A DNA stretch of 64,000 nt. Source: Trypanosoma brucei. Taxonomy: Eukaryota. The stretch covers positions 2,752,001 through 2,816,000 of the forward strand of contig CM000207.1 in assembly GCA_000002445.1 (NCBI GenBank). Reading direction: 5' to 3'. Positions within the stretch are counted from its first letter, which is position 1. The number at the start of each line of letters is the position of its first letter. The translations under genes were made by a program, and so were the position numbers. This document shows, piece after piece, positions 1 through 61,817 of this stretch. The notes below the pieces were generated by a model, which saw nothing but the letters and a program-made list of their open reading frames with translations, was not told the DNA's origin and ran no database searches.

Positions 1-1618
1 GCACTGGCACGCTTTCGGGTTGGGTCTTCAAGACACTATGGATGGATGTTGCGAAAGATCAACCCGAGTGTGCCTCCACAGTGCCGATGGTGCAACCCAC
101 AACATGCAGCGATAGGACCAACAATACAAACAGCCCCACTTGTTGCGACACGCACTCTTCAGAGAACCTCCGAACCGATCAAATGTACGGAATGTGATGC
201 CACATACCAATGCCGCTCGAGTACTGTAACGCACATGGTAAACAAACATGGCTTTGTGCGAGCTGATGCCCTCCGGAGGATCAAATACGGCGATGCAACA
301 CCCGCAGTGGATATCCCCCCGGAGCCCCCTCCAGTGGTGGCGATCGTTCCTCTACCATCGAGCACACGAGTCCCGATGAGACCGCAGGTGCTTCATTGTA
401 CCATCTGTGCCTCCAAATTCGCAGTACCAGGCAGACTATTACACCACCTTAGAACAATACATGGCATAGGCAGCGGTAGTTGCCGCGTGAAAAGGGGGCG
501 AGAGAACGAGGACTCATTGCAAGGAGATGGTAGAGCCCCAGCAGCGCCAGCCTCTCAGGATACACGGAAGCTGTAGTTTCAATGTGACCTGTGTGAGGCG
601 AGCTTCGGTACACGCTCTTCCCGGTCACTACACAAGAAATTCAAACATAAGAGCATAGTGACGGAGGACGGTACCGTGGTGGTGGTGCAATTCCCTCGTA
701 AGCGTGCCCGTGAAGGAAACGTTGACGTCCCGGGGAAAGGCGAGGAGCAGTGTGGTGTGCGCCAGAAAGTGCTCAGTTGCAGGGACTCTCTCATCCGACA
801 CTGTAAGGCTTTCCACTAATGTGAGGAAGTCGAGGTTAAATGCAGCAAAAGCACAAAATTATGTGCCACTGATTCCCCGCATACAAATGCATCCATGTTG
901 GGTGTGACCGACATGCGGAAGGCAGTGTGCTAGCAAAACTGGCCTCACCCTACATCAAAAGAAGATGCACGGTATGAAGATAGAGCGCGCTGTTACCAGC
1001 CAACGCGGCGACTGCGAAGAAACGGCGCTGCACCTGATGAACTGTCCCGATTTGAAGGAGTTACGTGTTAGGTTTGCGGTGGAAGGTGTGTGTGTGTGTG
1101 CAGGATGTATTATTCTCCAAAAGACTGGCGCAGTTTCTCATTGCGGTTGAACGAAGCCGGCCGCATGTGAAGTCCTCCCCTAATGTAACAGTTATACAAC
1201 CCACTTTCCTTTCTGCAACTTTCCCCCTTATTGCCGAGTGTGGAGCTAGCAGGAAAAGCACCGGACGCAGGAATAGTCCAGACACCCTCAGAGACAGAGG
1301 GGGTATGCAATCAACAAGCAACAGAAACAGAAAAAGGGGAAGAGAATAATAAACGAATAACAAAAATCAAAACAAAAGGATTGCTAATTGACATCTTTTG
1401 GAGAGTCTGGGGTGGGAGGTTTCTCGCCCCATCTGCTGTATTCCGTTCAACTGCGGAGCTACAACAAAAGTTATAGAAAGTGTATTAGGCTGAATAAAAA
1501 AGGGAGACTCTGCCACAGTCGCCAGACCGATAGCATCTCAGGGCTCTACGGTGATGGCTGATGGCCGCGCCAGTGGGGGGAAACTCCCACGAAGGCACGA
1601 AGAAAATTCCAAAAAATA
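1..1618 (+). mobile_element. ingi non-LTR retrotransposon, 3' ~1.6 kb (5' part lies outside the window)
   Basis: 1-1618 is colinear and near-identical by eye with 54063-55677, the 3' end of the full ingi in this window. It ends in an A-rich tail at ~1600-1640 and carries the C2H2 zinc-finger ORF. Confidence 0.85.
46..816 (+). pseudogene. ingi ORF C-terminal C2H2 zinc-finger domain, disrupted
   Basis: ORF 46-576 has the motifs CTECDATYQCRSSTVTHMVNKHGF and HCTICASKFAVPGRLLHHLRTIHG. The paralogue 54109-54882 reads through to KAFH, but here a TAG at 575-577 interrupts and the remainder continues in other frames. Confidence 0.8.
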
Positions 1619-1689
1619 TAATATGTTAAATTTTTCAAAATAGCACATTCTTGAAAATTTTCAAAAATTTTATTATGGCATTAAACTCA

Positions 1690-2099: not shown

Positions 2100-2880
2100 G
2101 ACGGGGTACCGTAAAAAAACAGCCGCTATATCACTAGAAGAAAAACATGGATCATTAAAAAAATATTGGGTCGATGTGGGGATGAAAAAGAAGGTGGAAA
2201 AAATTTAAGGAAAGATGTATGCTGGATGAAAAACGGTTAGGGTTTGCAGAAAAAAGAGACGCTTAATAATTAAACAAAATTAAAAAATATATTTAAAAAA
2301 ACTAAAAATCAAAAAAATCAAAAAAATGAAAATTTAGAAAAAATTAAAGAGGCAAATTTTTTTAAAACGCTTCTGAAGTACAAAAAATAAAAGCCGCCGC
2401 ACGGCTTGTGAGAATAAGGGTTAAGGTCCCATAACAAAATAGCCGCTGGACGGCTGAAAAAATAAAAACAAAAGCTAAACCCCAAAACGACTCAGAAAAT
2501 TAAAAAATTAGCGTGGAGGAAAATTAACCCTAACCCGAAACACCTCGGCATAAAAAGGAAGGGAGGTCCAAAAAAAACGATATCGGATGGAAAAGGAAAG
2601 TAAAAAATATCAAAGGTCAAAAAAATTTTTAAATTAAAATTCAAAAATTCACGAAATTAAAAAAATGCTGAAAAAAAATTTAAGCATAAAAAAATCAAAA
2701 TTACAATTAAAAAGTTGTTAAAATAGAAAAATTCAAAAAATCTAAAGGTCTAAAAATCTAAAAACTTTGAAAAAACCCTAAAAAATACTAACCCTAAAAT
2801 GTCAAAAAAATTCAAAAAAGGGAGAAAAAATGGAAAAAAATATAGGCGCCAGAAAAAAATCACAGAATCAGAATATTTTA
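2100..2880. repeat. A-rich low-complexity tract with scattered degenerate telomeric hexamers
   Basis: ttaaccctaacccg at ~2524, accctaa at ~2776 and aaccctaa at ~2790 read CCCTAA on the plus strand. One ggttagggtt at ~2237 is in the opposite orientation. The tract lies directly 3' of the VSG 3' UTR at 2881-2961. Confidence 0.6.
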
Positions 2881-2961
2881 CAAAAACACACTATTTTCAG
2901 GTAAATTACCTGTTAAAATATATCAAATAGCAAAAATTTCTTTTAAAAGGGGAAATTTGTT

Positions 2962-4568
2962 TTAGAAAAACAAGGCCACAAAAGCAAAAACACTGAGAGC
3001 GAATTGTTTGTTTACCAAAAAGCTTCCATTTCGGCACATTTCTTTTTCTAGATCAGGCTCATTATCTTTACCCTTCCTCCATGCGCAATTTTGCTTGTCG
3101 CCTGTTTTGCCATTTTTACAAGCGGCTTTATCACTTCCGTGTCGTGCACACCCATTTGAAGCTGCTCCTCCTGTAGCTCCATCTTTTTATGCTTTAGCTG
3201 CTTGTTGTTCTACTGCTGCCGTATTCAATTTGCAGTGTTTTCCATCTTTCGCGTCACCGCCCTCCCATTTGCATTTTCCATTGTTTTTGGAGTCAGCTGC
3301 TACCGTTATGGCTTCGCACTCTTTGGTCAGGTCGTCCGTCTCACGTGGCGCGGTTTGTTCTGCTTTTGTAGCATGGTTTTTGACCTACGTGTCCCATATT
3401 ATGTCCTTTAGCGTCTCATTTAGGTTGTCAATTTGCTGATTTATATCCTTGATGCTTTGCGCTGCAGCTATAATGTGTTCCTGCTGCGTTAGCGCTTCTT
3501 CGAGACTTACTAACCAGGGTACCGTTATTTTTTCGCCAGAAAAATGTTCGCCTTTATAGTGAACGCATTTGCCGCCGTTGGTGTCCGTTTTACCTAGGCA
3601 ACCGTCGGCAGCCGTGCCCGCTGTTATGCCTAATAAATGCATTGTGGCCTCGTTGGTATCGCTTTTTTTTTGCTAGGCTGAGTTTTGAAGTTTGCCACCG
3701 CTGCGTGCAGCGCTGCGGCTGTTAGGCTCTGTCCCTTTGGCAATTTTTGGCATTCTTTTTTGAAGACTGCCCATATCTTTTTGTCTTCCTTGGCGGCTGG
3801 CCAGTCGACGGTTGCCAGGTTGTGTCCGTCTTCTGTGGCCCCACACCCCGGGAAGCACGCTTGGCCAGCGTCGTTGTCAGCGGCTTTAAAAGCGCACAAG
3901 CAATGCAGGTCCCATCTGAGACTCCGGCCGGCCAGAGAAGTGCCTAGGCTGGCGTGGTTGCCGCATCTGTCCGCCAGGCCCGCGCCCCCTGACGCTGTCG
4001 TCTCCATTGTTTCCGTTTGGTCTTTGCCGTAAAGCGCATCTTGCTTTGCTTTTTTTACTGCTGCCGGGGTTAGCTTGTCTTTCTCCAATTTATATTTCTT
4101 GTAAAGCTTGAAAGCCTGCCGAGCCATTGATTCTAGCCGCTTTTTGGCTCTGCTGGTTAGCTTGGCTTGTCGCCACTTTTCGTATTCTGCCTTAGTTTTT
4201 TGTTCCACAAGTTTTTTTAGCCCTAGTTGCCAAAAGTCCCCGTGTTCTTTCCATTTTTCTAACTCGGCGCCGCCTTTTGGCGCTACATCTTTAACTTTGA
4301 GTTGCTCAATCGCATAACATGCCTCCAAAACGTTAGTGAAGACTGCGGAGCTACTTGTTAGATTTATTGCTGCTACCACGGCAACTGCGGCTCCTGGGTT
4401 CTGATCTCATGGTGGTACAATGGTCTTCGTCAGCGCCAAATTTACTAAGTCACAAAGAGCGCCGAACTCCTGTCTTAGTGTGCCTTTTCCTGTGTCAGCA
4501 GCGCTTGGCTGCATATAAAAAAGAACCATTAGTACAGAAACGGCTGCAAGTCGCTGTTTCAGTGTCAT
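2962..4568 (-). pseudogene. VSG pseudogene with several frameshifts and stops
   Basis: Signal peptide and N-terminus MTLKQRLAAVSVLMVLFYMQPSAADTGKGTLRQEFGALCDLV are at 4407-4598(-). Central ORF pieces are 3630-4379 and 3385-3642. The C-terminus CRNGSFLVNKQFALSVFAFVALFF ends at a stop at 2962. The 3' UTR at ~2912-2927 carries the 16-mer TGATATATTTTAACAG. Confidence 0.8.
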
Positions 4569-5597: not shown

Positions 5598-6279
5598 TTA
5601 TGTAAGGGTTTTCACAATTAATTTCGCTTTCTCTTTCCATGCAATTGGCTGTACAGGAAAATGGATGAATGGAACCTTTCCAACTTCACTATTAGTCAGA
5701 ATCAAAAAGTATCTCTCCTCATAATCTAATCCAATCATTCCTCTCTTCAAAACAAATCTCTCTCCAACAGCTTCTTCCTGAATGGCACTCCATATTAGCA
5801 GAGGCTTTGAAATACTTTGATCCGACCACCACTCCTCATTTTTTTTACAATAACTCTTGAAATGCATATTCAAACATTTTAACTGCCCATACTCTTGCTA
5901 TTAAAGGTCAACCACTAATATAAGGTTTTCTACTAGGAGGAGATTTCAGTAAATGAGGTAATTTATTATCCTCCCCTTTTCTGTAACCGACATGAAAAAA
6001 CCAAAAACATCTCTGCACATGCTCCTTGTGATCTGAATTCATAACCAAATCCAACTGAGGCGCATAACACTCTGATGTTGTCATGAATATAATAGGGGAA
6101 ATATGCTTCTCTTTTACTATATCTTCTCCACTAAACTTCTCTTCATTTTCAGCAGTATTTTGTATAAAATATTCCACACCATTCTCATACTTATTTCCAT
6201 CACTAACTATAACATCAGATCCGTCTAAATGGATTACAATATCCTCATCACTTGCATTATGTTTTTTCAAAAATTCCAT
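5598..6279 (-). pseudogene. Unrecognised conserved ORF, copy A; two frames of ~123 aa and 91 aa joined by a frameshift
   Basis: ORFs 5908-6279(-) MEFLKKHNASDEDIVIHLDGSDV... and 5598-5873(-) ...VGERFVLKRGMIGLDYEERYFLILTNSEVGK.... A paralogous degenerate copy is at 22775-23300, and the flanking DNA at 6280-6450 matches 23300-23450. Confidence 0.5.
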
Positions 6280-7354
6280 AACTCATCTAGGTCTCTTAAC
6301 ATGGCTATACAGACCTCCTATCGTAATTACAATAATTTCAACATTTCTTAATTAGCCACTCAATATGAGTCAACACCATCCTTGAGTTCCATGAGTTTGA
6401 ACGACAACGACAAACACTCTTACTTTGCTAGAATTATTTTGTGTTATATTTGTTGTTGTGTTTTATTGAAAATCTATTTCGCTTAAACAAAGTGAATGTT
6501 ATAACAACAATAGATCCCATAAGATAATAAACTTCATCTCCGTAACTCACCTACAAATTTGATTGTTTTATAAACAAAGCTTAGAAACATTAAGGAAACA
6601 AGTCAAATGCGCCACTAAGGTCTTTAGTTAAGGAAAAGATTTCATATAGATAATGCCTTGATGTTTATATATTGGAACTGTGAAGTGTGTATACTTAGTG
6701 TAAATAGCTTATCTTTGGGCACACAAATCTGATACTTTCTTAATAAAATAACTTTTGCTATACCTATAATCACACACTAACTGTATTTCACTGTAGTTTG
6801 CATTTACATATTTTGCGTATGCATTTTTATTACAATTGCAGTAGCGATTCGTATTGTTTCTCTCAAATATACTACGAAGTTTGCTACCCTTACGTGATAA
6901 ATACTATAACCACACTGTTTTATTATGAGAATTCAATTAGTATGGCTTCATAAATTAACAATTCTGTTGTTTATACCTCTATCCCTGAAATAGCATGTAT
7001 TTGCGATTTTCAAACATAGGGATAAATTTCATTAAGTATTATTTTCTTTCTTAGCATATTACAGCGCACCCTATTGTTTCACTCTATATTTATGTTTTTT
7101 TATCTTTTTCTTTTCTGTCTCTATTGATACTGATAACGTAGCTATCAAATTTGGTTTGCATTCTCTACCCTGTTTCTACCTAATTTTCACCTCCATCATC
7201 TCCCTGTGTATAATGTTTCCCTTTGTCATGTTTGTGCCTAAAACTACGCATATTCTATGTCATTCTCTCTCCCCTTGCCTCTCATTCACTCTCGTTGGAC
7301 ACTTAATATTGTTTTAAAAGATTCTAATTTGGCATTATATTTAGTCTTCACCGA

Positions 7355-7731: not shown

Positions 7732-9174
7732 CTAAAATTCTACAAAACCCACAAAAGAAGAAACAATCAGGGCGATTTTTTTGTTTACTAGAATGGAGGA
7801 ATCTTTGCATTCTGTTCCTTCCCATTTGCAACCATCTTTGCACACGGCTTCACTTTTATTATCTTTGCATTTTTCTGTTGTTGTTTCAGGTCCTCCAGTT
7901 TGTGCTTGTGTTACAGAAACACTCTTCTTTTTTGCTTTTTCTGTATCTAATTTGCACTTTTTATTTTCATCAGTTTCTGTTTTGTTAAAACTGCATGCAG
8001 CTGTTGCATTGCAGTCTGCTTCGATTTTAATTTCGTTGCAGCCGCCTTCTGTTGTGATTGGGTTACATTCTGTTGGTGGTGGTGGTGGAGTTATTTCCTG
8101 TGTTAGTTGCGCTCTTTTTGTGGTCTCAGTGCTTTTTCCTGATGCCGTAACTGCGTCCCCTCTAAGCTTTTTGATTGCCTTGTGAGCTGCTTTCAGCGTC
8201 GGTACGGATATTTCTACAGTTTGTTCCGTGTCGCCAAGTCCGAGTTTGGCTTCCGTTGTAGTTATAGCTTTAAAAGTCGGGTTGGGGTCGGCGCTTCCGA
8301 GTGTTGTTAATTGACCGAGTGCCGCCGTCGCTGCGTCTAAGCTTGCGGTACATGTTGGCTTTAGAGCCTTGACTTTGGTTATCGGGTTATTTGTTTCGAG
8401 TGGATGGCCGGTGGACCAGCTAGTCGCCGCTGGTACTGAACCTGTCAGTTTTAGCAAGCCGGCCATAAGATAGATCGTTGGTGCGGTGCCCCCCCCGGCG
8501 CCCATTACTCCGTTTGTGCCGTCAGTTGCTGAGAGTCGGCAGCTTTTGGTGGCGTCGACGCCTTTGCTGCCATCGCCTCCTGTGCCGAAGTTTGTTAGAG
8601 CGTGCTGGGCGCCGGTTAAGGTTGCGACCGCCTCCTTCTTGAAGGTTCGTCTCACGGCGTCTCTGTCCTTGCAGTCGGGGATATCGTTGATGGCTGCTCT
8701 GCCGCCTGCTCCGTCGTTGCTCATGCAATAGTTCGAGCCGCCGTTGTTCGCGGCAAAAAACAGGTGCGTGGTTTCTAGTATCGCACCGGCAACAAAGGCT
8801 CCTTCATTTCCGGCGTCTATCGCTGCTGCCAAGTGTGTTCGCACAGCTGCCTTTGCTTCGTCTACTGTGGTCCTAGTATGCATCAGAAGGTTTATATTGT
8901 CGTCGTTCCTCGCCAGTGTCCCTGATTTCATTAACTTTTTTATGTCGTGGAGTATCGTTTCAACTTCAAAAAGGTGGCTTGTTAGTGTTTTGGTTATTGT
9001 TTCGGCGTAACTACCGTATTTCATCAGCTCGTTGGCAATCTTGCAGCTGTCATCAAATCCCTTGGCTTTTAAGGCTTCTTGTGTGCCCATGGTTGGTGCT
9101 GACGTCGAAATTAGACTCAGGATTGCCAGCAACATCTGGTACAGGACAGGTCTACGTTTGGATGTTTGAGTCAT
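7732..9174 (-). CDS. VSG: Variant surface glycoprotein, apparently intact at 480 aa
   Basis: A single ORF from ATG runs through the hydrophobic signal peptide (LLAILSLISTSAPTMG) and an Ala/Thr/Gly-rich N-domain to the Cys-rich C-domain ending CKWEGTECKDSSILVNKKIALIVSSFVGFVEF. A 70-bp repeat lies ~1.5 kb upstream. Confidence 0.85.
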   Translation of the reverse strand: MTQTSKRRPVLYQMLLAILSLISTSAPTMGTQEALKAKGFDDSCKIANELMKYGSYAETITKTLTSHLFEVETILHDIKKLMKSGTLARNDDNINLLMHTRTTVDEAKAAVRTHLAAAIDAGNEGAFVAGAILETTHLFFAANNGGSNYCMSNDGAGGRAAINDIPDCKDRDAVRRTFKKEAVATLTGAQHALTNFGTGGDGSKGVDATKSCRLSATDGTNGVMGAGGGTAPTIYLMAGLLKLTGSVPAATSWSTGHPLETNNPITKVKALKPTCTASLDAATAALGQLTTLGSADPNPTFKAITTTEAKLGLGDTEQTVEISVPTLKAAHKAIKKLRGDAVTASGKSTETTKRAQLTQEITPPPPPTECNPITTEGGCNEIKIEADCNATAACSFNKTETDENKKCKLDTEKAKKKSVSVTQAQTGGPETTTEKCKDNKSEAVCKDGCKWEGTECKDSSILVNKKIALIVSSFVGFVEF

Positions 9175-13975: not shown

Positions 13976-14201
13976 CACTATCCGTAAATAGGTCAAAATA
14001 ACAAAATTAAAATGTTACTCACTTTGTTACACCTTATCACCATAATAAGCGGCATACACAGGACACAGTAATATACATTTTACTAAAATTTCATATTTTA
14101 AAAAATTTCACTAATTTTCACACTTTTATTAAAGGTGTTAAATATATCAAATTTAGAAAACTTCATTAATTTCATAAAGTCGAGGGGAAATCTTAAAAGT
14201 T

Positions 14202-15707
14202 TTATAGAATCAAAAATGCTAGCAAAAGAGGAGCTTTATTGATAACAAAAGAATTACTTACTGTGGTGTTTGTAGCTTTTCCATCTGTCCCTGTTGCTGC
14301 TGTGGTCGCTTTAACTTTGCACTCCCCATCTTTGTATTCACACCCATCCTTGTTGTTGCATTTAGTTTCGTCTTTTTCTCCCTTGCACTCTTCTGATTTT
14401 TTGTTATACACTGTTTCTGATATGTTCTTCATTTTCTCTGCCGTTTACAGTTTCCGCTTGATTCTTATTCCTTCCATTTGGCTGAGAGCTAAGTTTGCTG
14501 CTTGTGCTGTTGTCATGCTTGTAATCTTCTTTTTTTCCTGCTTGACTCTGTCTCTTGTCGGTGTTGTGTCTGCAGCAAAATCTTCTTCAAAACTCGCTTT
14601 AAATGCGTTGGCGTCGTGCCCGAATTTGCTCGAAATCCACTCTGATATTTTTTGACCCTCCGCTCCGCTTTGTGGGTCATCTGCGCTGTCGAATTTGGGG
14701 AGACAGTTGCGTATCGTGCGGCGCACTATTGGGTTATCCTTTAGAGCTGGGCCACTTAGGGTGGGCATCGTTTCTGGCGCAACGTCGGCCTTTAGTGCTT
14801 CGCAGAGTTTCTGGGCGAGTGTTTTGGGGTGATTGGCTGCGTCCTGTGGAGATGCGGCGTCATTGGCACACGCTCCACGCTTCTCGTTCGATGCGAAGAA
14901 TTGAATTTGAGTCTGAGCCGGTTTTCCGACCCAGTTTCCGTGCGTGAACGCGACTTTGCCGTCGCTGGCATGCCATGTGCAGGCGTTAAGCACTGTGCCT
15001 TGGCTACCGCTGCTACCGCCGCTGAAGCCTGAACCGTGGGCTGGGACCAACTTTTTGGTTGGGACGTATTCGTGGAGTTTTGCTGCGTCCGTTACTTTCA
15101 GCTTGTACAGTTTCGTTGCATCTGGGTTTCTGCCTTTACATTCTGGTGTTGCCTCTGGTGCTGTTGGCTTGCAAATCTGTTTACCGGCCGCTTTCGTTTC
15201 AAGGTTTATAGTAACTGTGTGGCTTGCTTTAGTGTGACTGGCGTCCGTTTTCGCCCCTACTACTGTTGTCGCCACCGCTATTGCCGCTTGGGCTATACCG
15301 ATCTGAATATCTATCCTTTGCTGCGCTGCCCGCATAGCGGTCGTTGCTACCGCGAGCTTACCTTCGTTTCTCTCGAGGCTGTTCCCTGCGAGAGCCACCA
15401 GCGCCAGGATGCTGCAGATGTATTCGGCCACCATAGCTTTCGCTGCTGCCAGCCTGTATTTGCGCGCCAAAGTTTTTGAGTCAGCGACTGCTGGGCTCAG
15501 CGACCCGAGTCGGCCTTCAAGCTGTTTCCTAAGTTCTTTTAGGTAGTCGACCTCAGTGCAGGGGTCCGTTATCCCTTTTTCCGCGGCGGGGTCGTTTGTT
15601 TCAGCCGCCGACGTAGCCGTATATTTAGATAAAAGAAGCGCTATGGTTAGTGTCATTGCTTTTTTCAATATCGTGTGGCAGCAGCTTGGTTTACGGTCAA
15701 GAATCAT
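14202..15707 (-). pseudogene. VSG with one frameshift between the N-domain ORF (420 aa) and the C-domain
   Basis: ORF 14445-15707(-) ends ...MEGIRIKRKL. The C-domain ORF 14202-14432(-), CKGEKDETKCNNKDGCEYKDGECK...SNSFVINKAPLLLAFLIL, is in another frame. The same C-domain is in frame in the paralogue at 31014-32546. Confidence 0.85.
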
Positions 15708-22774: not shown

Positions 22775-23300
22775 TCATTCGTCATAAACCGCCTTGTTTC
22801 CAACTCTTTCTACTAAGTAAAATTTTTTACAATCAATTTTTCTTTCTCCCATGCAAGTGGCTGAAAAACAAAAATAAATAAATGCAGTCTTTCCAAACTC
22901 TCCACTAGTTGGAATAGAAAATAATGTCTCCTCATAATTCCATCCAATTATTCCTCTTCTCAAAGAAAATTTCTGTACAACAGCTTCTTTTTGAGTTGCA
23001 CTTCACATTGGTAAAAGCGATGAAAACTTTGCTCTAATTTCCATTATTCTCTTCCTCTCAAAAATTCTCCAAATACATATTCAAATATCTTAAATTCCCA
23101 AACTCTGGCTATTAAGCCACCACTAAGATAAGATTTTTCACTAGGAGGTGATTTCAGCAACTGAGGTAATTTTTTATCCTCTTCTTTTTCTTAACCTACA
23201 TTAAAAAACCACTTACATATCTCCATGCTTTTTTACAATATCCTCATCACTTGCATTATGTTTTTATAAAAATTCTATAACATCTAGGTTTTCTGACATG
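22775..23300 (-). pseudogene. Unrecognised conserved ORF, copy B; more degenerate, with a ~250-bp internal deletion relative to copy A
   Basis: ORF 22775-22963(-) ...LRRGIIGWNYEETLFSIPTSGEFGKTAF... is paralogous to 5598-5873. The 5' part at ~23230-23300 encodes MSENLDVIEFL*KHNASDEDIV, compared with MEFLKKHNASDEDIV in copy A. Confidence 0.5.
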
Positions 23301-24404
23301 ACTATACAAACCTCCAATCTAAATTGTAATAATTTCAACATGGCTCCGTTTGGCACTCAGTATGAGTCTACACCATCCTTGAGTTACATAAGTTTGAACG
23401 ACAACGACAAACACTCTTACTTTGCTAGAATCATTTTGTGTTATATTAGTAATGTTATTTATTTTTTCAAAATATCAAGTGATTTTGTGCTTTAGTACTC
23501 TAAATGTAATATCCATGGTAGTGGTAAAATTCTCAAGACACCAAACGTCATTCTAAAATATACTTTTTAAATCTTAAAGTGTTAAAAGAAGAATTAGAAA
23601 CTTTAGGAAAAGAAGTTAGTTGCACCACTAAGGTGAACAGTTAAGGAAACCATGTTTACATATGTAAATAATGCGTTAACATTGTTCTGATATAATTGTT
23701 AAAGGGTATATCCTCACCATCTGTAGCTTATCCTTGAGCACGGATCTCTGGGCTTTGTTTTTTTAAAGTTAGTTTCTATCCGTAGTTGGTTCTGCGCTCC
23801 ACATGCATGCTACTGTTACTTTTTCACATTTCCCCATTCTGCGTAGTTATGGGAACTACAGTAGTTAGTTGTACTGATTATTTCAGATACGCTAGGAGTC
23901 TTACCAGTTGCCTTTGGTAACTATCTCGGTAGCCGCTTTTAGCACGAGACTCTCCTCACCATAGCTTTATTACATACATATTCTCTTGTGCAATCGTTAT
24001 CTATGCGATGGCATCTATCCACTTATGTGTATAAGGTGCTGCACAATCTTTTTCTAGTTTTTCTCTAGAGTACTGCTCTGCACCAAGATGTTTCATTCCG
24101 CATTCCGCATTCCGCATTTCCATTTCCATTTCTTCTTTTTCATCCTCTATTGCTGCTTCTGCAGATAAGAGAGCGAGCTTATCTGAGCTATACATTGAAC
24201 TCTGTGCCTTTCTTAATGTCCTTTCCATTAACATCACATGTGTGATAATACACATCGCCGCGTTTATGCCGCAACTGCATGTATTTAGCCACTATTTTCC
24301 TTAGTCTCTTACCCTCCCTCTCACTCATTCACTTATTTCCATTGCAGTCTTGTCATTTTCTTAAATGCTTTTATTTTCTCTTTTCGTTCGGTTTTCACCA
24401 TAAC

Positions 24405-24480
24405 TCTCAATATAATATTAGTATATTCGCACTCGCAATACAATCATATCGATATCATCATTATTAGTATCAGTACTGTT
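24405..24480. repeat. 70-bp repeat, about 1 unit
   Basis: aatataatattagtatattcgcactcgcaatacaatcatatcgatatcatcattattag. Confidence 0.65.
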
Positions 24481-24734
24481 ATAACCCTACCTATTATTTT
24501 AAAAAATAAACTAAACTAAATTAGAATAACACACATTTTTTACACACTATTATCCTACTACTTTGCACCCATATGCCACGTTCAAACACATGTTACTAAA
24601 AGTCGCACATATCAATCATAAAGTTTTGAAATACATCAACGTTTAGAAAATATTAGCAAACTATTACAAAAGTAATTTTCTTAGAAAACAACATATTTAT
24701 AAATAAAAATACCTAAAATTTTACAAATCCACAA

Positions 24735-24970
24735 AAGCAGCAGCCATCACAGCAAATTTTTTATTTACAAGAAAACTGGAATCCTTGCACTTGCTATCTT
24801 CCCATTTACAGTTGTTGTCCTTTTCAAAAGCTTGTCGATTAGTGCCATGTCTGGTACACCTATCTTTTTTCTAATCTTTACCTCCTTCTTTTGCTGCTTC
24901 TTTTGCTGTTGCGTTTTTCCACCCAATGTGCACTTTTTATCCTCGTTTCCTTTGGGATTTAAAATGCGGC
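24735..24970 (-). pseudogene. Orphan VSG 3' fragment (C-terminal domain plus GPI signal only)
   Basis: agcagcagccatcacagcaaattttttatttacaagaaaactggaatccttgcacttgc... is the minus-strand CKDSSFLVNKK..ALM...GPI block. Similarity to VSG ends ~230 bp upstream. Confidence 0.6.
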
Positions 24971-25141
24971 CATGACAGTTGTGCGGCTTTAGACGTCTGC
25001 TGGCAGGGGCAGATCTGGAAGTCGTTCCTTAACTGCTGATCGTAATAATCTCCTAGTTTCGAATAGCTCTCTTTTTAGATTATTTATACTTTAAAAGCAA
25101 TTCGTTTCGCGCAGCTACACTGCCACGCGCCAGCGTTAAAA

Positions 25142-25166
25142 ACGTATATATATATATATATATATT
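25142..25166. repeat. (TA)12 microsatellite
   Basis: tatatatatatatatatatatat. Confidence 0.9.
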
Positions 25167-25329
25167 TTAATCCGGGCGCAACCCGAAATGCAAACCGGAA
25201 ATTCACAAAAGATTAAAAAGTGGTATTGTAACAATGTGGAAATAAAATAAATAGGTGAAAAATAAGAAGACGAAGTTGCCTACTCTCTGAAGAAGCGCCA
25301 ACCATAATTAAAAAAAGCCGCTGCATCGC

Positions 25330-25480
25330 AAAGAAAAAATGGCAAGTTATAAAAAATTCAAAAAAGGTAAATTAAAACCCTAACCCTAAGCCTAAGTTTA
25401 AGCCTACCTGACCTCCCTAACTAACCCCCTAACTAACCTAACTAACCTACCTAACTACCCCTCCCCACTCCTACCCCCAC
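25330..25480. repeat. Degenerate telomere-like hexamer tract (CCCTAA / CTAACC variants)
   Basis: aaaaccctaaccctaagcctaagtttaagcctacc ... ccctaactaaccccctaactaacctaactaacctacctaactacccc. The C-rich strand is on plus, the orientation expected for a telomere lying 3' of the minus-strand VSG at 25675-27349. Confidence 0.7.
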
Positions 25481-25674
25481 TTCCACAAAAAAAACGGGAA
25501 AGAAGGAAAAAAAAATTTTTAAGTTTCCAGAAAAAATTTCTAGACAATCAGACAGTCAACTTACAAAACACAGAACAAAGAAATCTCGGCTGGTTTTAGG
25601 TGTTAAAATATATCAGAAAGTTTTCAAGTAGCAAAAAATTTTAGCAAAAATTTTTTAAAAAAGAGGGGTAAAAA

Positions 25675-27349
25675 TTAAAAAAGCAAGGCCACAAAAGCAG
25701 CAGAAACCATGCTAAGGGCGAATTGTTTGTTTAGGAGAAAACTGGAAGAGCGGCACCTAAACTCGTCTTTGTCCTTGTCAGCTTCGCCACCTTTTTTCCA
25801 GGCACAAACAGGTTTGTCTTTTCCTTCATTCATTTTTTTACAGCCGCTTTCGTCATTGAAATGCTGTGCACATCCAGTTTGTGTTTTCTCCCTCTGCAGA
25901 TCCCTCTCCTGCTCCTGTTCCTGCTGTGTTTGTCTGTCCTTCTCCATCTTTAGCTGTGCACTTTCCTTTGGTGTCACTCTCTCCTGTCCATTCGCAAGGT
26001 TCATTACATTCTTCTTTCTTGATTTTTTCTGAGCATTTGGGATTCGTTCTGATTGTTTCTTCAAAAGTCTTCCGGCAGTTGGCGGTCCCCTGATACTTTG
26101 CATACATTACCGCTTCCGCTGGTCCTGTTGATGCTTTTTTGGCGAGAGCAGCTAGTGTCTCGGAGGTTTCTTTTCCTGCTATTTTGTAACGTTCTGTCTG
26201 CTCTGCGGCTGCTTTTAGAAAAACGACTTCAACTGAGTCTGTCGATTCGCCTAGAAAGTCCCTGACTGCTTTGGCCTTGTCAGATACAGCTTTGTCTGGG
26301 TCGTATTTGTCTGGGTTTAAAGCTATAACGATTTCCTGCATCGTTAGGTCATTTGCCAAGTCACTCACCTTTTCTGCGCTTACTGTCTTTTGTTTTTTTG
26401 CCTTCTCTGCATTTCCGCGGCACAGCTGTGCCGCCATCAGGTCTGCTGTTACTGTGAGTTTTGTGTCCTTTCCGTCTATGGTTTCACATGTACGATCGCC
26501 GCTGGCTTTGGTGTACTTTGCTGCTTTATTATTCGGCGAGCTTGGCTCCGCCGGTTTCATTGTGTGTATTCCCACTGCGCCGTTTTCTGATCCCTTTGCT
26601 ACGTTGGTACCGCACGCGTTGTTGTTTTGTTGAGTGCTCAGCTCTGCGCTAACTGTTCCTTTACAAACTGCTTTGACTGTTAAGTGTGGTCTTTTGAACA
26701 GATCGTCGTGAACTAATGTTAGAGTTTCATATGTGTCTAAGTGAGTAGCGGCATGATCGAGCTCCTGCGTGTTCGCGTTTTCTGTATCGCATGCGTTTTG
26801 CGGCTTTTCTGCCCCGTCAAATCGAACTGAGCACGCTCCTGTTGAGCCTGCAGTGAAAAAGTCGTTGCCTGCCCCTGAGCTTGCTTGCGTTGTCGCCCGG
26901 GGCTCCGTAAACAAGTCGACCTGCGTTAGCATTGCCAGCTGTCCGCGGCGCTTGTCTATTATTTCCGGTGTCTTTTGCCATTCTTCTGTTTTGCTCGTAA
27001 GCTCAGAAACTTGGGTCTGTAGGCGAGCCGTTGTTAGTGCTGCTAAGGCTGTAAGTTTTTTTTGTGTGGATCCCGTTGGTGTCTTGGCTTTTACCAATTC
27101 TATTAACGCCACGTCATTGGCTAATTCTGCCGCCGCTTTCTGAGTTTCTGCTATCCGCTGCGAAAACCTTGTCCGAATTGCTTTTAAAAATCTTGTCTCT
27201 GAGCATGGCATCGTTATCTTAGCAAGCAATGGAGTGTGTGTCGTGGCTTGTGCCTCTTTTTCTAGCGACACCGCCAGTAGAGCTAGTACAAATTGCAAAC
27301 CGCTTCCTGAAATAGACATAGACCGTATTGACAACGTATAAGCCGGCAC
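25675..27349 (-). pseudogene. VSG with a frameshift between the N-domain ORF (498 aa) and the C-domain
   Basis: ORF 25853-27349(-) has the signal MSISGSGLQFVLALLAVSLEKEA. The C-domain ORF 25675-26103(-) ends ...CRSSSFLLNKQFALSMVSAAFVALLF. The 3' UTR at ~25596-25611 has the 16-mer TGATATATTTTAACAC. Confidence 0.85.
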
Positions 27350-27584
27350 TGTTTGTGTAATTCGCTATCTTTGCTGCGGTATTTAGGGGTTTATTGTCGA
27401 AAGCAATTTTGTTTGGATGCTGAAAGATGGTTATTAGTTCCAATGCCCATCGACTGGCAGATAACTGTTGTTTTAAGTACCTAGGCCAGGTGGTTGTTGC
27501 CACAGACCTCATTTGGTAAGTCATTACTTGCTCGAATACTTTTTGTGCTTATTTTTTCAGTTTTTCCTTGTTCGTCACCACAAC

Positions 27585-27655
27585 TATCATAATCTTAGTA
27601 TATGCACACTCACAACACTTTACTATTATTATCATTATTATTATCAGTATAACCC
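27585..27655. repeat. 70-bp repeat, about 1 unit
   Basis: agtatatgcacactcacaacactttactattattatcattattattatc. Confidence 0.75.
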
Positions 27656-27805
27656 TAACAAATGTCTGCAAAACAAAAAATGGACCAAATTAGAGCAACA
27701 CTAATTTTTCATACCATATCACCCGCTCACCTTACTATAATGCACCCATAGGACACTCACATACAAATGTTTCAAATTCTCAAAATCTGCACATTTTCAT
27801 AATTT

Positions 27806-30780: not shown

Positions 30781-31013
30781 AAATTTATCTAATATCCTCA
30801 AACAAAATAAGCCAATATAATAAATTTTTAATAATGACGCTAATTTTTCATTCACTATCACCATACTGCTTTACACCCATAGGATACTTTTATACTAACA
30901 CTTCATATTTTAAAAAATTTCACTAATTTTCACACTTTTATTAAAGGTGTTAAATATATCAAATTTAGAAAACTTCATTAATTTCATAAAGTCGAGGGGA
31001 AATCTTAAAAGTT

Positions 31014-32546
31014 TTATAGAATCAAAAATGCTAGCAAAAGAGGAGCTTTATTGATAACAAAAGAATTACTTACTGTGGTGTTTGTAGCTTTTCCATCTGT
31101 CCCTGTTGCTGCTGTGGTCGCTTTAACTTTGCACTCCCCATCTTTGTATTCACACCCATCCTTGTTGTTGCATTTAGTTTCGTCTTTTTCTCCCTTGCAC
31201 TCTTCTGGTTTTTTGGTGTCAATTGCTTTGGGTATGTTTTTCTTCTCTGCTTCAAGTTCCCTCTTGATTCTTATTCCTTCCATTAAGCTCACAGCTTGAT
31301 TGGTTTTCTCTGTAGAACTGGTTAGTTCGGTGATCTTTTTGCTTTCTACCTCTCCCTTGTCTCGTATGGGTGTGCTTTCACCCTCAAGTAGGGACTTGAA
31401 TTTGTCGTTGAAATTGTCTGCTGTTTCTCCGTAGCCTTTTTCTATCCATTTTATCAATTCTTTTGCCTTGCTGTTATCCGTTGGGTCGTCTATGTTGTGA
31501 AACGCAGGCCAGCAGTTGCGCACATAGGTTCGGATCGCATGAGACCCGCTGAGGCTTTTGCCGCTATATTCAGATATTTTTGTTGTGTTTGGTGTTAGCT
31601 TCACGCCCTCGCATATCGCCTTGGCTCGTCTTTTCAGTGGCTCATTTGCTGCATCTGCTGCTGTGATGTCTGAGTGGCAGGCTGTCTTGTCTTCGTTGCT
31701 CTTGAAAAAGTGGGTTGCTGTCCTGTAGGCTGATGCTGGCGGTTTGGCTTTTGTTATTTCGACAGCACCTGAGGCGCCGCTGAACGAACATGCGTTTAGT
31801 GCACCCGTAGCGCTTTGGCTGTTTTGCGTTGTGCAGCCGCCTTCGGCTGTAATTTTGATACCGTCCAGTTGATTGGCTTTGTTAACTTTTGATTTATCTG
31901 TGAGGTCCAGTTTAAAAAGGTCTTGCGGTTCCGGTGTTTCCCCTCCGAACGTTTCTTTTGCTTCGTCAGTTTCTAATTTGCACAGGTCTTCGCTTTTCGC
32001 CTTTACTAATTTTAGTGTGGCTGTATAGGGGCTGCCGCCTCCTGTGCTGCTGTGGACGGAACCTGAGTTCATCTTTGCGTGCACTGCCGAAACAGCTAAT
32101 GCTGCTGCTATGACACCTTGTTGCTGCTTGATTGCTGTGGTTGCAGAATTGACTGTTTTTCGGACTCTCTCCAGCTCAAGCTCGTTGGCCTCGAGCGCAT
32201 CGCTTATCGTTAGTTCCAGTGCCGTGAGCAAACACTTTTGTCCCTGTTCCTGCGCTTTGGCTGCTGCCATCCGCCACTTTCTAGCTTCCGTTTTCTGCAG
32301 CCTAATTGTGGCTTTAATGTCGTTTAATTTCCCTTGTATATGCTGGCTGAGCCTCGTTAAATAGGCATGCTCTTTGCACACATCTGTTGCCGCTTCTGCC
32401 GCTGGGTCATTGGCCTTGTTGGCGGTGCAGGTTGTCGCGGCGTTGAAAATGAGTAACAACGTCGGTATTGTTGAGTATGGCATCGGCAGAGTTTTGGTAA
32501 TTAACGTTTCTCTTAATGGACTATGCTCTCCCTGTCGGTTTTTCAT
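31014..32546 (-). CDS. VSG: Variant surface glycoprotein, apparently intact (510-aa ORF; the likely true start is the internal Met before PYSTIPTLLLIF)
   Basis: A continuous ORF runs through the signal peptide MPYSTIPTLLLIFNAATTCTA and the N-domain to the C-domain ...CKGEKDETKCNNKDGCEYKDGECKVKATTAATGTDGKATNTTVSNSFVINKAPLLLAFLIL. The 3' UTR has TGATATATTTAACAC. 70-bp repeats lie ~0.9 kb upstream. Confidence 0.85.
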   Translation of the reverse strand: MKNRQGEHSPLRETLITKTLPMPYSTIPTLLLIFNAATTCTANKANDPAAEAATDVCKEHAYLTRLSQHIQGKLNDIKATIRLQKTEARKWRMAAAKAQEQGQKCLLTALELTISDALEANELELERVRKTVNSATTAIKQQQGVIAAALAVSAVHAKMNSGSVHSSTGGGSPYTATLKLVKAKSEDLCKLETDEAKETFGGETPEPQDLFKLDLTDKSKVNKANQLDGIKITAEGGCTTQNSQSATGALNACSFSGASGAVEITKAKPPASAYRTATHFFKSNEDKTACHSDITAADAANEPLKRRAKAICEGVKLTPNTTKISEYSGKSLSGSHAIRTYVRNCWPAFHNIDDPTDNSKAKELIKWIEKGYGETADNFNDKFKSLLEGESTPIRDKGEVESKKITELTSSTEKTNQAVSLMEGIRIKRELEAEKKNIPKAIDTKKPEECKGEKDETKCNNKDGCEYKDGECKVKATTAATGTDGKATNTTVSNSFVINKAPLLLAFLIL

Positions 32547-36804: not shown

Positions 36805-36870
36805 TATTGCTATAAACTCACTCACAACACTCTCTTATCAATAAATTATTATTATTATTATGACCCTAAT
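36805..36870. repeat. 70-bp repeat, about 1 unit
   Basis: ctcactcacaacactctcttatcaataaattattattattattatg. Confidence 0.7.
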
Positions 36871-60290: not shown

Positions 60291-61817
60291 CCGAATACGG
60301 CAGCTCACCTACTAGGCATACTGCTTTCATTCGTGTTGGCGCCGAAGCAAGCATCAGCGGATGCTCCAAGCATAAAGCTGTCAACGTGGCAGCCAGTGTG
60401 CCACCTAGAAAAGGACACAAGACGTGTACCAGCCAGAGGATACAAGGCAATAACGGCTGCAATAGCCGAAGAACAAGCGATACGCTCGGCGGCCCTAAAG
60501 GTCCTAATATTTGCGGCCGCACACACCAGCGGAGAAGAGCGGGCTCGAACGGAAGCGCTAGGTTTAGACACCATGCAAGCAGCAGAAGCCAAACGACGAG
60601 AACTCGAAACCACGGTAGAGATGGCCCTCAACAGTGCATCCACAAGCCTCGAACTAACAGGCCGAATAGAAGCAACAATGGAAGTCCTAAAAGCCACGCA
60701 CGACAACAACAACAACGGTTGCCTTTCTGACGACGACAGGGACGCCGTGACTAACGGAAACACAAAAAAGCACGGCTGTGAAGGAACAGTTACGGACGTA
60801 GCCAACGACGAAGACACTATAGACGACAGCAACATAGGGCCAACAGGCTACGAAAAGCTAACGGCAGTCCCTGGCAACTCTGGAGTAAGCGGCGACTCGT
60901 CGAAATGCGGCTTTCTAAACAGAGGTGTGGCGGGAACAGCAACGATTATCAGCACCGAGGCGCCCACTTTGCTATCAGGAGTCTTCAAAATAAGCGGTAC
61001 CGACCAATTCCAGAGAATGGCGCAGGTAAACCAAGGAACAGCTGGCGCCCGCCAAAAGACAAACATCCTGAAACAAGCCTACCACGATGCAAGGAAAATA
61101 CAGACCGTAACAAAGCTCGCAGCGACAACTGACGAGGTAACACTGCTTAAAGCAGCGATCACGAGCGGCTACGTCAAGCAACAACTAGCGGCGCAGCTTA
61201 GCCAGCAGCAAGAGAACCCGAACAGCCAACAAAACGACCAGGCGGTTACGGAGATCATCAACAGCAAATTCAAAACAACTGACGACACCATAAAGGACCT
61301 TTGGGCGAAAATAAAAGTAGCAGAAGTCACAGATGTCAAAGGCAAACTGGGATATAAGAAACAACTACAAAACATAGGCGAAGAAACAACATTACAAGCG
61401 ACCTTGATTTACTACGGAAACCAAAATACGCTTAGGATAGCAGCACTGGAAGCTGAAGTCAGGAAATCACAAGAGAATTCAGCTAAAAAGAACCAACAAG
61501 CGCTAGAAGAAGTTTGTAATGCAATAGGCGACAAAAATGAAACTACTTGTAAGAACACGTCAGGGTGTCGTTTTGTTTCTACAAATCCCAAGGGCACAAA
61601 GTGTACCTTAAACCCAGAAGCAGCAAAAGAAGCAGAAAGAGCAGAAGCAAGTCAAGAAAAGAAAACCGACCCCAAGTGCTCCAAACATACCAAAAAGGAT
61701 GACTGTAAATCTCCTGATTGTAAATGGGAAGGAACAGAGTGCGAAGATTCTAGTTTTCTCGTAAATAAACAATTGGCTCTGAGTATGGCTACTTTTTTGT
61801 GTGTTTTCTTTTTTTAA
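60291..61817 (+). pseudogene. VSG: VSG on the plus strand with a continuous ~508-codon frame but no ATG start (ACG at 60297-60299 where ATG is expected)
   Basis: The frame opens after TAA at 60288-60290: PNTAAHLLGILLSFVLAPKQASADA... is a signal-peptide-like stretch with no Met. The tabulated ORF start at 60333 is GTG. The C-terminus is CKSPDCKWEGTECEDSSFLVNKQLALSMATFLCVFFF*. Confidence 0.7.

Follow-up and report, generated by a model that had tools for sequence, protein, structure and literature searches.

A probable telomere-type variant surface glycoprotein 3' end embedded in a silent Trypanosoma brucei array

The closest described counterpart of the sequence studied here lies downstream of the telomeric variant surface glycoprotein (VSG) gene VSG221 (VSG-2), in expression site BES1 of Trypanosoma brucei Lister 427 (AJ271641, nt 211-322; PMC1807955, PMC3610638). 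Its 106 bp comprise 46 bp of T1-2AG1-6 units and, after them, 10.5 degenerate repeats of the form T2AG G/A G/A/C, and all mapped chromosome-healing events fall inside it (Glover et al. 2007, PMC1807955). At the telomere it serves telomerase as a seed when a distal break has occurred, and the formation of new telomeres from it was confirmed by PCR (Glover et al. 2013, PMC3610638). More generally, the VSG of an expression site lies 200-1590 nt from the telomeric repeats (PMC2567434). We describe here a tract that may be of the same type, found inside a VSG array of Trypanosoma brucei brucei TREU927, in a stretch of 64 kb (hereafter the window). It lies 3' of a VSG pseudogene, u8, and a weaker version of the arrangement is found some 22 kb away, 3' of a second pseudogene, u1.

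Coding sequence for the glycosylphosphatidylinositol (GPI) signal, together with the 9-mer and 16-mer of the 3' untranslated region (3'UTR), forms the classical limit, on the downstream side, of duplicative VSG gene conversion. A conserved VSG 3' end was reportedly described by Berberof et al. in 1995, and the array cassette is said, in Berriman et al. 2005 and Marcello & Barry 2007, to run from a 70-bp repeat through the VSG and its 3'UTR to the next 70-bp repeat. The 70-bp repeat itself has been described (PMC4858185). Among functional VSG transcripts the 16-mer is conserved, and mRNA stability depends on it (Ridewood et al. 2017, PMC5698767). In other eukaryotes, short interstitial telomeric sequences (ITS) are attributed to double-strand-break repair or chromosome fusion (for example PMC2246262, PMC6410037).

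The window is a subtelomeric VSG array in which about 15 VSG units (genes, pseudogenes and fragments) occur together with an ingi retroelement and a ribosomal DNA (rDNA) fragment. When it was searched by tblastn with its own VSGs, 14 genes, pseudogenes or fragments of this family came out between 2965 and 44572, all on the minus strand, and two further units on the plus strand beyond 58.5 kb. VSG A-type, B-type and C-terminal domains were found by Pfam in open reading frames (ORFs) across the window. Minus-strand units were labelled by their 3' ends, from u0 (1673) to u15, the stop codon of u8 being at 25675 and that of u1 at 2962. In the direction of transcription, the u8 locus is made up as follows.

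27570-27662, minus strand: 70-bp repeat that precedes u8, its GT-rich core at 27618, with only ~250 nt between it and the u8 ATG
25675-27319, minus strand: u8, full-length VSG pseudogene (ORFs and translations, VSG 529 homology, Pfam)
25876-25949, minus strand: end of the VSG 529 homology (~25949) and frameshift (~25876-25890), together the upstream edge of a distinct 3' module (BLASTP, three-frame translation)
25675-25875, minus strand: second C-terminal subdomain and GPI-signal coding sequence, common to u1 (alignment, translation)
25600-25674, minus strand: u8 3'UTR (repeat and motif searches)
25486-25599, minus strand: segment following the 16-mer and ending in a polypyrimidine/T run, which resembles only its u1 equivalent, 2811-2909 (72%)
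25372-25477, minus strand: T2AG3-like tract of 106 nt, beginning 198 nt after the u8 stop codon (motif scans)
24976-25371, minus strand: unique, non-coding spacer between the tract and u7, without a match elsewhere in the window
24723-24970, minus strand: u7, orphan array-type VSG C-terminal fragment with its own array-type 3'UTR, ending in ...CKWEDSKCKDSSFLVNKKFAVMAAAFVDL / ...DSSFLVNKKFAVMAAAFVDL before a stop
24400-24489, minus strand: 70-bp repeat after u7, with a TAGGGTTA octamer, a TRR run and a GT-rich core at 24441, where the normal cassette boundary resumes

On the gene strand, read from 25477 down to 25372, the tract opens with the G-rich GGGGTAGGAGTGGGGAGGGG, continues with TAG, TTAGG, TAGG, TTAG and TTAGGGGG units and closes with TTAGGC TTAGGG TTAGGG; it thus reads TTAGGG in the direction of VSG transcription. 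The plus strand of 25372-25477 shows the corresponding CCCTAA-type repeats, aaaccctaaccctaagcctaag, then CCTAACTAA and CCTAACTAACCTA variants, with the C-rich end last. Within its 106 nt the minus strand holds 14 T1-2AG1-6 units and five TTAG[GA][GAC] hexamers, and runs of 3-5 G are present on one strand. Over the whole window, 28 18-mers came within <=4 mismatches of (TTAGGG)3, all on the minus strand, versus 2.1 expected from block and local shuffles, and most of them fall at 25370-25401 and 2519-2543. Coverage by T1-2AG2-6 units, in 100-nt windows, reached 53% in the u8 tract and was <=13% in every other window of the 64 kb. An earlier note on this DNA, made by eye, had pointed to a telomere-like tract 3' of u8, and these counts bear it out: it is the only strong telomere-like tract in the window. 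It is not a true telomere, having at most two perfect consecutive hexamers. It is also internal: the array extends 25 kb to one side of it and 38 kb to the other, and the sequence that flanks it on both sides is unique.

The tract is like that of VSG221 in length (106 nt versus 106 bp), in its two-part make-up, in its orientation on the VSG sense strand and in its distance (a few hundred nt) 3' of the VSG; in both cases further non-telomeric DNA, and not directly the telomere, comes next. Judged against the published description it has the features of a VSG221-type tract, and it may well correspond to such a seed tract, the comparison being one of descriptions, not of aligned sequences, and seeding having been shown for VSG221 only. 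The setting differs: the u8 tract is found in a chromosome-internal array, behind a frameshifted pseudogene, and what comes after it is an orphan VSG fragment and then a 70-bp repeat, not a telomere. With ITS it has in common that it is a short, degenerate, internal block of TTAGGG type. Unlike an isolated insertion at a repair site, however, it belongs to a larger gene-associated flank that has a known telomeric counterpart.

Some 210 nt beyond the tract, the spacer contains a (TA)10.5 run at 25145-25165, which had been noted as (TA)12 and has no counterpart in 2100-2990. The sole ORF of the spacer (40 aa) passes through this TA repeat, no RNA gene was detected in 24976-25371 with Rfam, and RNA folding around (TA)10.5 gave nothing of note (z = -1.7).

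The pseudogene upstream of the tract begins with an ATG at 27319. Its N-terminal frame stops at 25853, and a single frameshift near 25876-25890 leads, in three-frame translation, into the C-terminal frame, which ends in ...NKQFALSMVSAAFVALLF and a stop codon at 25675. The VSG placed earlier at 25675-27349 is thus not one ORF over that span. By BLASTP, u8 is 62% identical to T. brucei VSG 529 over residues 21-457, and its C-terminal frame matches Pfam Trypan_glycop_C (E = 4e-17). The homology with VSG 529 ends at residue 457 (~25949), past the first C-terminal subdomain. There VSG 529 closes with a short ...SFVINKAPLLLAVLLF signal, whereas u8 instead continues with a second subdomain and a ...AAFVALLF signal. 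Because the homology stops at that residue, the 3' module of u8 has another origin than its N-terminal part, and u8 is composite. Its 3'UTR carries a 13-nt tandem duplication at 25629-25654 and, 60 nt after the stop codon, the only perfect copy in the window of the 16-mer TGATATATTTTAACAC (25600-25615), a consensus that we take to be the 16-mer conserved in the VSG 3'UTR.

The 488-aa N-terminal ORF of u8, 25853-27319, gave no Pfam-A hit at E <= 0.001. There was no Pfam hit either for ORF 14445-15707 or for ORF 31014-32546, the latter a VSG by annotation that clusters with VSG 546. The N-terminal domains of these three appear to escape current Pfam VSG models.

The u1 locus, again in the direction of transcription, contains the following parts.

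2962-4568, minus strand: u1, degenerate B-type VSG pseudogene (Pfam VSG_B, E = 1e-25), ending in ...NKQFALSVFAFVALFF and a stop codon at 2962
2811-2961, minus strand: u1 3'UTR and T-rich segment following the 16-mer, homologous to 25486-25674
2100-2810, minus strand: telomere-type flank, T-rich on the gene strand, without a 70-bp repeat (motif scans)
1673 to ~2000, minus strand: u0, orphan degenerate array-type C-terminal fragment (Trypan_glycop_C, 30.1 bits), ending in ...FRDSSILVKTRIALMADAFLSLMP before a stop; its upstream limit is approximate

Several stops and frameshifts interrupt u1. Its 16-mer, at 2910-2925, has one mismatch. In its flank, exact TTAGGG occurs three times only (2792-2797, 2776-2781 and 2528-2533, the last beside TTCGGG), accompanied by TTCGGGTTAGGG at 2528-2539 and by degenerate TTTTTAGA units at 2727-2791. 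At the window background rate, arithmetic from the counts gives about 0.035 exact hexamers expected in 277 nt, and the u1-flank hexamers are non-random. The telomere-like content of this flank is nevertheless weak, with 6 units and 12% coverage. The region 2100-2990 had been described as mirroring the arrangement behind u8. The mirror is weak: it has the three TTAGGG hexamers, but coverage is only 12%, no CTAACTAACC repeats occur in the u1 flank (2100-2990), and the TA run is missing. A reading of the u1 flank as tandem units of ~320-380 nt, each with UTR-like, polypyrimidine and hexamer parts, was considered and dropped as unproven, the local alignments (z ~2) not being significant.

What sets u1 and u8 apart from the rest of the array became clear when the 700 nt downstream of every unit were aligned. 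In u3-u7 and u9-u14, the 70-bp repeat of the next cassette, composed of a TRR run, a GTGTTGTGAGTGTG core and an AT-rich part, comes ~250-300 nt past the stop codon, and these flanks are mutually alike (pairwise scores 24-87). Against them the u1 and u8 flanks score 7-18, which is background. No 70-bp core is present in 24976-25675 or in 2100-2962, and the next one after u8 is at 24441, past the orphan u7. Thus u8 is like an ordinary array cassette in its upstream 70-bp repeat and in being in register with 13 other minus-strand units, but differs in having no 70-bp repeat <=300 nt downstream, where T2AG3-like tract, unique spacer and orphan are interposed. The GPI signal is also different, being ...NKQFALS..FVAL(L/F)F in u1 and u8 and ...NKKFA.MAAAF(V/M)SLVAF in most other units. 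Both are genuine members of the VSG family, with GPI signals visible in translation, and both are pseudogenes. Their 3'UTRs are canonical, with the 16-mer exact in u8 and near-exact in u1.

Each of the two telomere-type flanks precedes an array-type fragment reduced to a C-terminal domain, the u8 flank leading to u7 and the u1 flank to u0. An orphan VSG 3' fragment beyond the u8 tract had been noticed before, and it is indeed there, at ~24723-24970. In 3'-end comparisons u7 and u0 group with the array units, apart from u1 and u8, and the neighbours u6, u9 and u12 keep remains of an N-terminal domain. An ingi copy (1-1627, plus strand) interrupts the 3'UTR of u0 with its 3' end, which adjoins it ~45 nt past the u0 stop codon.

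Telomere-like words are found at the 70-bp repeats as well. In 5-6 of the ~12 array 70-bp repeats, the TRR run has a TAGGGTTA-like octamer at its 5' edge, on the upstream side of the GT-rich core, with only 0.05 octamers expected per 130 nt. The cores concerned are at 36830, 33472, 27618, 24441 and 13868 on the minus strand and at 59099 on the plus strand. From octamer to core the distance is mostly 38-54 nt; for the 13868 core it is 105 nt. The octamer falls at +180 to +265 from the upstream VSG stop codon, which is about as far as the u8 T2AG3-like tract. As it recurs at repeat edges, telomere-like words would be regular at cassette boundaries.

The two 3' regions were then compared with each other, part by part.

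Second C-terminal subdomain: 59% DNA identity
GPI-signal coding sequence: 82% identity
3'UTR up to the 16-mer: 83% identity, with a 23-nt indel from the 13-nt tandem duplication in u8
Segment from the 16-mer to the T-run: 72% identity
Hexamer zone: background (59% in a many-gapped global alignment)
Beyond the hexamer zone: background (61% in a many-gapped global alignment)

The common block spans ~390 nt, from ~25875 to 25486, and stops where the hexamers start in both loci; in both, the T-run is directly before them. Sensitive BLAST recovered it in two pieces, 25642-25756 versus 2928-3037 (72% over 116 nt) and 25489-25615 versus 2814-2925 (65% over 129 nt). The common C-terminus and 3'UTR proposed by the earlier note are therefore confirmed, at 82% for the GPI signal and 83% for the 3'UTR. 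That note had also left room for the case that the short C-terminal motif alone was shared; pairwise alignment carries the likeness ~110 nt beyond the 16-mer. Over these ~110 nt the score is 21, which is reached by 3 of 500 dinucleotide shuffles, while all other units score <=14; the similarity of u1 and u8 in this part is modest but real and specific. Like the conserved VSG 3' end, then, u8 and u1 have the 16-mer, perfect in the former and with one mismatch in the latter, and ...FVAL(L/F)F; unlike that conserved end alone, their likeness runs past the 16-mer, which is seen in no other window unit, and both are pseudogenes. Among 15 units they are each other's best 3'-end match, with a local score of 44, versus 17-34 for the other partners of u8 and 15-39 for those of u1.

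Past the T-run the resemblance is lost. The best local alignment there has z = 2.2, and the non-AT words of >=9 nt that are shared are only telomere hexamers and one GCGGCT motif. When the u8 locus is set against 2100-3100 as a possible segmental duplicate, it can be aligned only over ~25875-25486, at 59-83%. The N-terminal domains are unrelated, u1 having Pfam VSG_B and u8 being VSG-529-like. A stringent self dot-plot of the window gave no u1/u8 block, though it detected other duplications at 79-95% identity (1-1627/54064-55682, 14073-14478/30884-31284 and two more). As the hexamer zones cannot be aligned and the flanks are at background, the tract plus flank was not copied between u1 and u8 as a unit. 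The proposal that C-terminus, UTR and tract had been duplicated or converted together is thus not supported. The related idea that such a 3' block can delimit VSG gene conversion agrees with established VSG biology, but it is independent of the telomere-like tract.

A GCGGCT + T-run motif occurs in four minus-strand copies, at 25310-25321, 2436-2446, ~2389-2400 and 2115-2126. All four sit in the u1 and u8 telomere-type flanks, and both strands of the window contain one other match. Two of the u1 copies form AGCCG-N5-CGGCT hairpins. As only ~10 columns are conserved when the four contexts are aligned, the motif was not used as evidence.

Taken together, these results make it highly probable that the u8 3' region, and more weakly that of u1, is a telomere-type VSG 3' end embedded in the array. 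On balance, the explanation we favour is that a telomere-type cassette 3' end, 24976-25875, recombined into the chromosome-internal silent array. Read gene-wise, this segment comprises the second C-terminal subdomain with ...AAFVALLF, the 3'UTR with its perfect 16-mer, the T-rich segment, the 106-nt tract and the ~400-nt spacer. The u1 pseudogene and its flank, 2100-2961, would be a second case of this telomere-type 3' end, older and further decayed. The two would then resemble each other because both descend from a family of telomere-type 3' ends, neither being copied from the other.

As to the route, recombination with normal homology upstream, followed by a non-homologous or microhomology join, is the one we favour, with somewhat less than even confidence. 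In this scheme u8 and u1 would each have been joined to the array by one recombination event. On the upstream side, normal cassette homology could have served, such as the 70-bp repeat 250 nt upstream of u8. On the downstream side the usual C-terminal/3'UTR homology would not have been used, and copying or joining would have gone on past the donor UTR and the T2AG3-like tract into the spacer. It would have ended by a non-homologous or microhomology join within the C-terminal domain of a resident array VSG, leaving the orphan fragments u7 and u0. In its internal, silent and frameshifted setting the u8 tract is most likely an inert relic, and u8 itself could contribute only segments to mosaic VSGs.

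Several points weigh against the recombination of a telomere-type end into the array. The match of the u8 tract with that of VSG221 rests on a verbal description of length, two-part composition and position. VSG221 is moreover a single example, and the tract could mark a 3'-flank subfamily that also circulates within arrays. The u1 locus, at 12% coverage, is a weak second case, and the recombination route is an inference.

A direct duplication or conversion between the u1 and u8 loci, 22 kb apart, moving C-terminus, UTR and tract as one block, would account for their being mutual best 3' partners and for a likeness that persists for ~110 nt after the 16-mer, up to the start of the hexamers in each locus. 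It is improbable, however, given an identity of only 59-83%, the 23-nt UTR indel, hexamer zones that do not align, a further 400-700 nt at background (z = 2.2) with telomere hexamers and one GCGGCT motif as the only common non-AT words, N-terminal domains of different types, and a self dot-plot that shows other duplications of 79-95% and none here. A recent u1/u8 duplication is largely refuted by these data, whereas an ancient event followed by heavy decay looks the same as common descent from a flank family. The two tracts could otherwise be fossil chromosome ends, that is, former ends of the arm to which distal DNA, starting inside the C-terminal domain of another VSG, was joined later, the array growing outward step by step. 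The two tracts are on one strand and have TTAGGG running the way the VSG is transcribed, as they would at a genuine VSG telomere; 400-700 nt beyond each, the sequence switches abruptly to an array-type C-terminal fragment; and it has been proved that T2AG3-like tracts can seed telomeres de novo (PMC1807955, PMC3610638). Yet a non-telomeric spacer separates tract and orphan (~400 nt for u8, 400-700 nt for u1), only three near-perfect hexamers are left, and T. brucei is reported to have no non-homologous end-joining (PMC12137147). If protein accessions rise with coordinate and the array is near the right end of the record, the tracts would also point away from that telomere. We consider this origin, the main alternative, rather unlikely, although less so than direct duplication.

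Still less support can be given to a functional interstitial element, such as a telomere-repeat-binding, base-J or G-quadruplex site for silencing, a boundary or a fragile site. The G-rich strand with its runs of 3-5 G and the TAGGGTTA-like octamers at the 5' edge of 5-6 of ~12 array 70-bp repeats are compatible with such a role, but only 2 of ~15 units have such a flank, one of them heavily decayed, both flanks belong to pseudogenes, and the tract is not conserved between the two loci, which makes the idea very unlikely. Finally, chance low-complexity sequence or an assembly artefact might be suspected, since the flanks are AT-rich and repetitive and the apparent internal repeats of the u1 flank are not significant (z ~2). 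The 28 telomere-like 18-mers versus 2.1 expected, all on the gene strand, the 53% coverage of the tract versus <=13% elsewhere, the location of both telomere-repeat-dimer loci downstream of the two ...FVAL(L/F)F VSGs, and the unique sequence flanking the tract on both sides reduce this to a negligible chance. Recombination of a telomere-type 3' end into the array is the reading we retain.

The remainder of the window includes two intact VSG ORFs, u2 (7732-9174) and u10 (31014-32546), which match exactly the TREU927 proteins EAN77424/XP_827754 and EAN77425/XP_827755, respectively. A block of ~400 bp, 94% identical, is present at 14073-14478 and 30884-31284, over the 3' ends and 3'UTRs of u4 (14445-15707) and u10 (31014-32546), array VSGs 17 kb apart; it is a recent 3'-end conversion or duplication between array VSGs. 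A 240-bp direct repeat, 85% identical, is found at 6234-6473 and 23233-23473; it belongs to the sequence between VSGs, upstream of u1 and u6. Two other features of the window are of different nature.

51488-54046: ingi-type ORF for reverse transcriptase (RT)/RNase H (Pfam)
55779-58845, minus strand: partial eukaryotic large subunit (LSU) rRNA gene (Rfam RF02543, model 24-2620 of 3401; 625 + 366 + 56 bits)

In the self dot-plot, 1-1627 and 54064-55682 form a direct repeat of 1.6 kb on the plus strand with 95.4% identity, 1-1627 being another copy of the 3' portion of the ingi-type element that has the RT/RNase H ORF. The LSU rDNA fragment is enclosed by the VSG array, with the ingi element on one side and a plus-strand VSG at 60333-61817 on the other, and a VSG C-terminal-like fragment (58645-58800, plus strand) is at its edge.

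No paper describing T2AG3-like tracts in the interior of T. brucei VSG arrays was found, in a literature search that did not cover Marcello & Barry 2007 and Berriman 2005, where a prior description is possible. The genome has been published since 2005 and all components are known, so that the contribution is a small one and general claims need a genome-wide census, for which the pattern of a flank followed by an orphan is one aspect worth counting. Twice in 25 kb a telomere-type flank is succeeded by an orphan C-terminal fragment of array type, and this may tentatively be seen as the scar of VSG traffic from telomeres (expression sites or minichromosome ends) into the archive, or of an array that grew outward in steps where the chromosome once ended. 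In the evolution of the archive by recombination, flow is usually discussed from the array to the expression site. If the above is true, array units with a telomere-type 3' end and truncated resident genes would be physical evidence of the reverse movement, or of past chromosome ends, and would at the same time indicate junctions in which the usual 3' homology played no part. If the pattern is general, the VSGs written back into the archive would possibly be once-expressed or mosaic ones, and T2AG3-like tracts with canonical 16-mers would provide a countable marker of how often, and by which type of junction, telomere-resident VSGs are written back.

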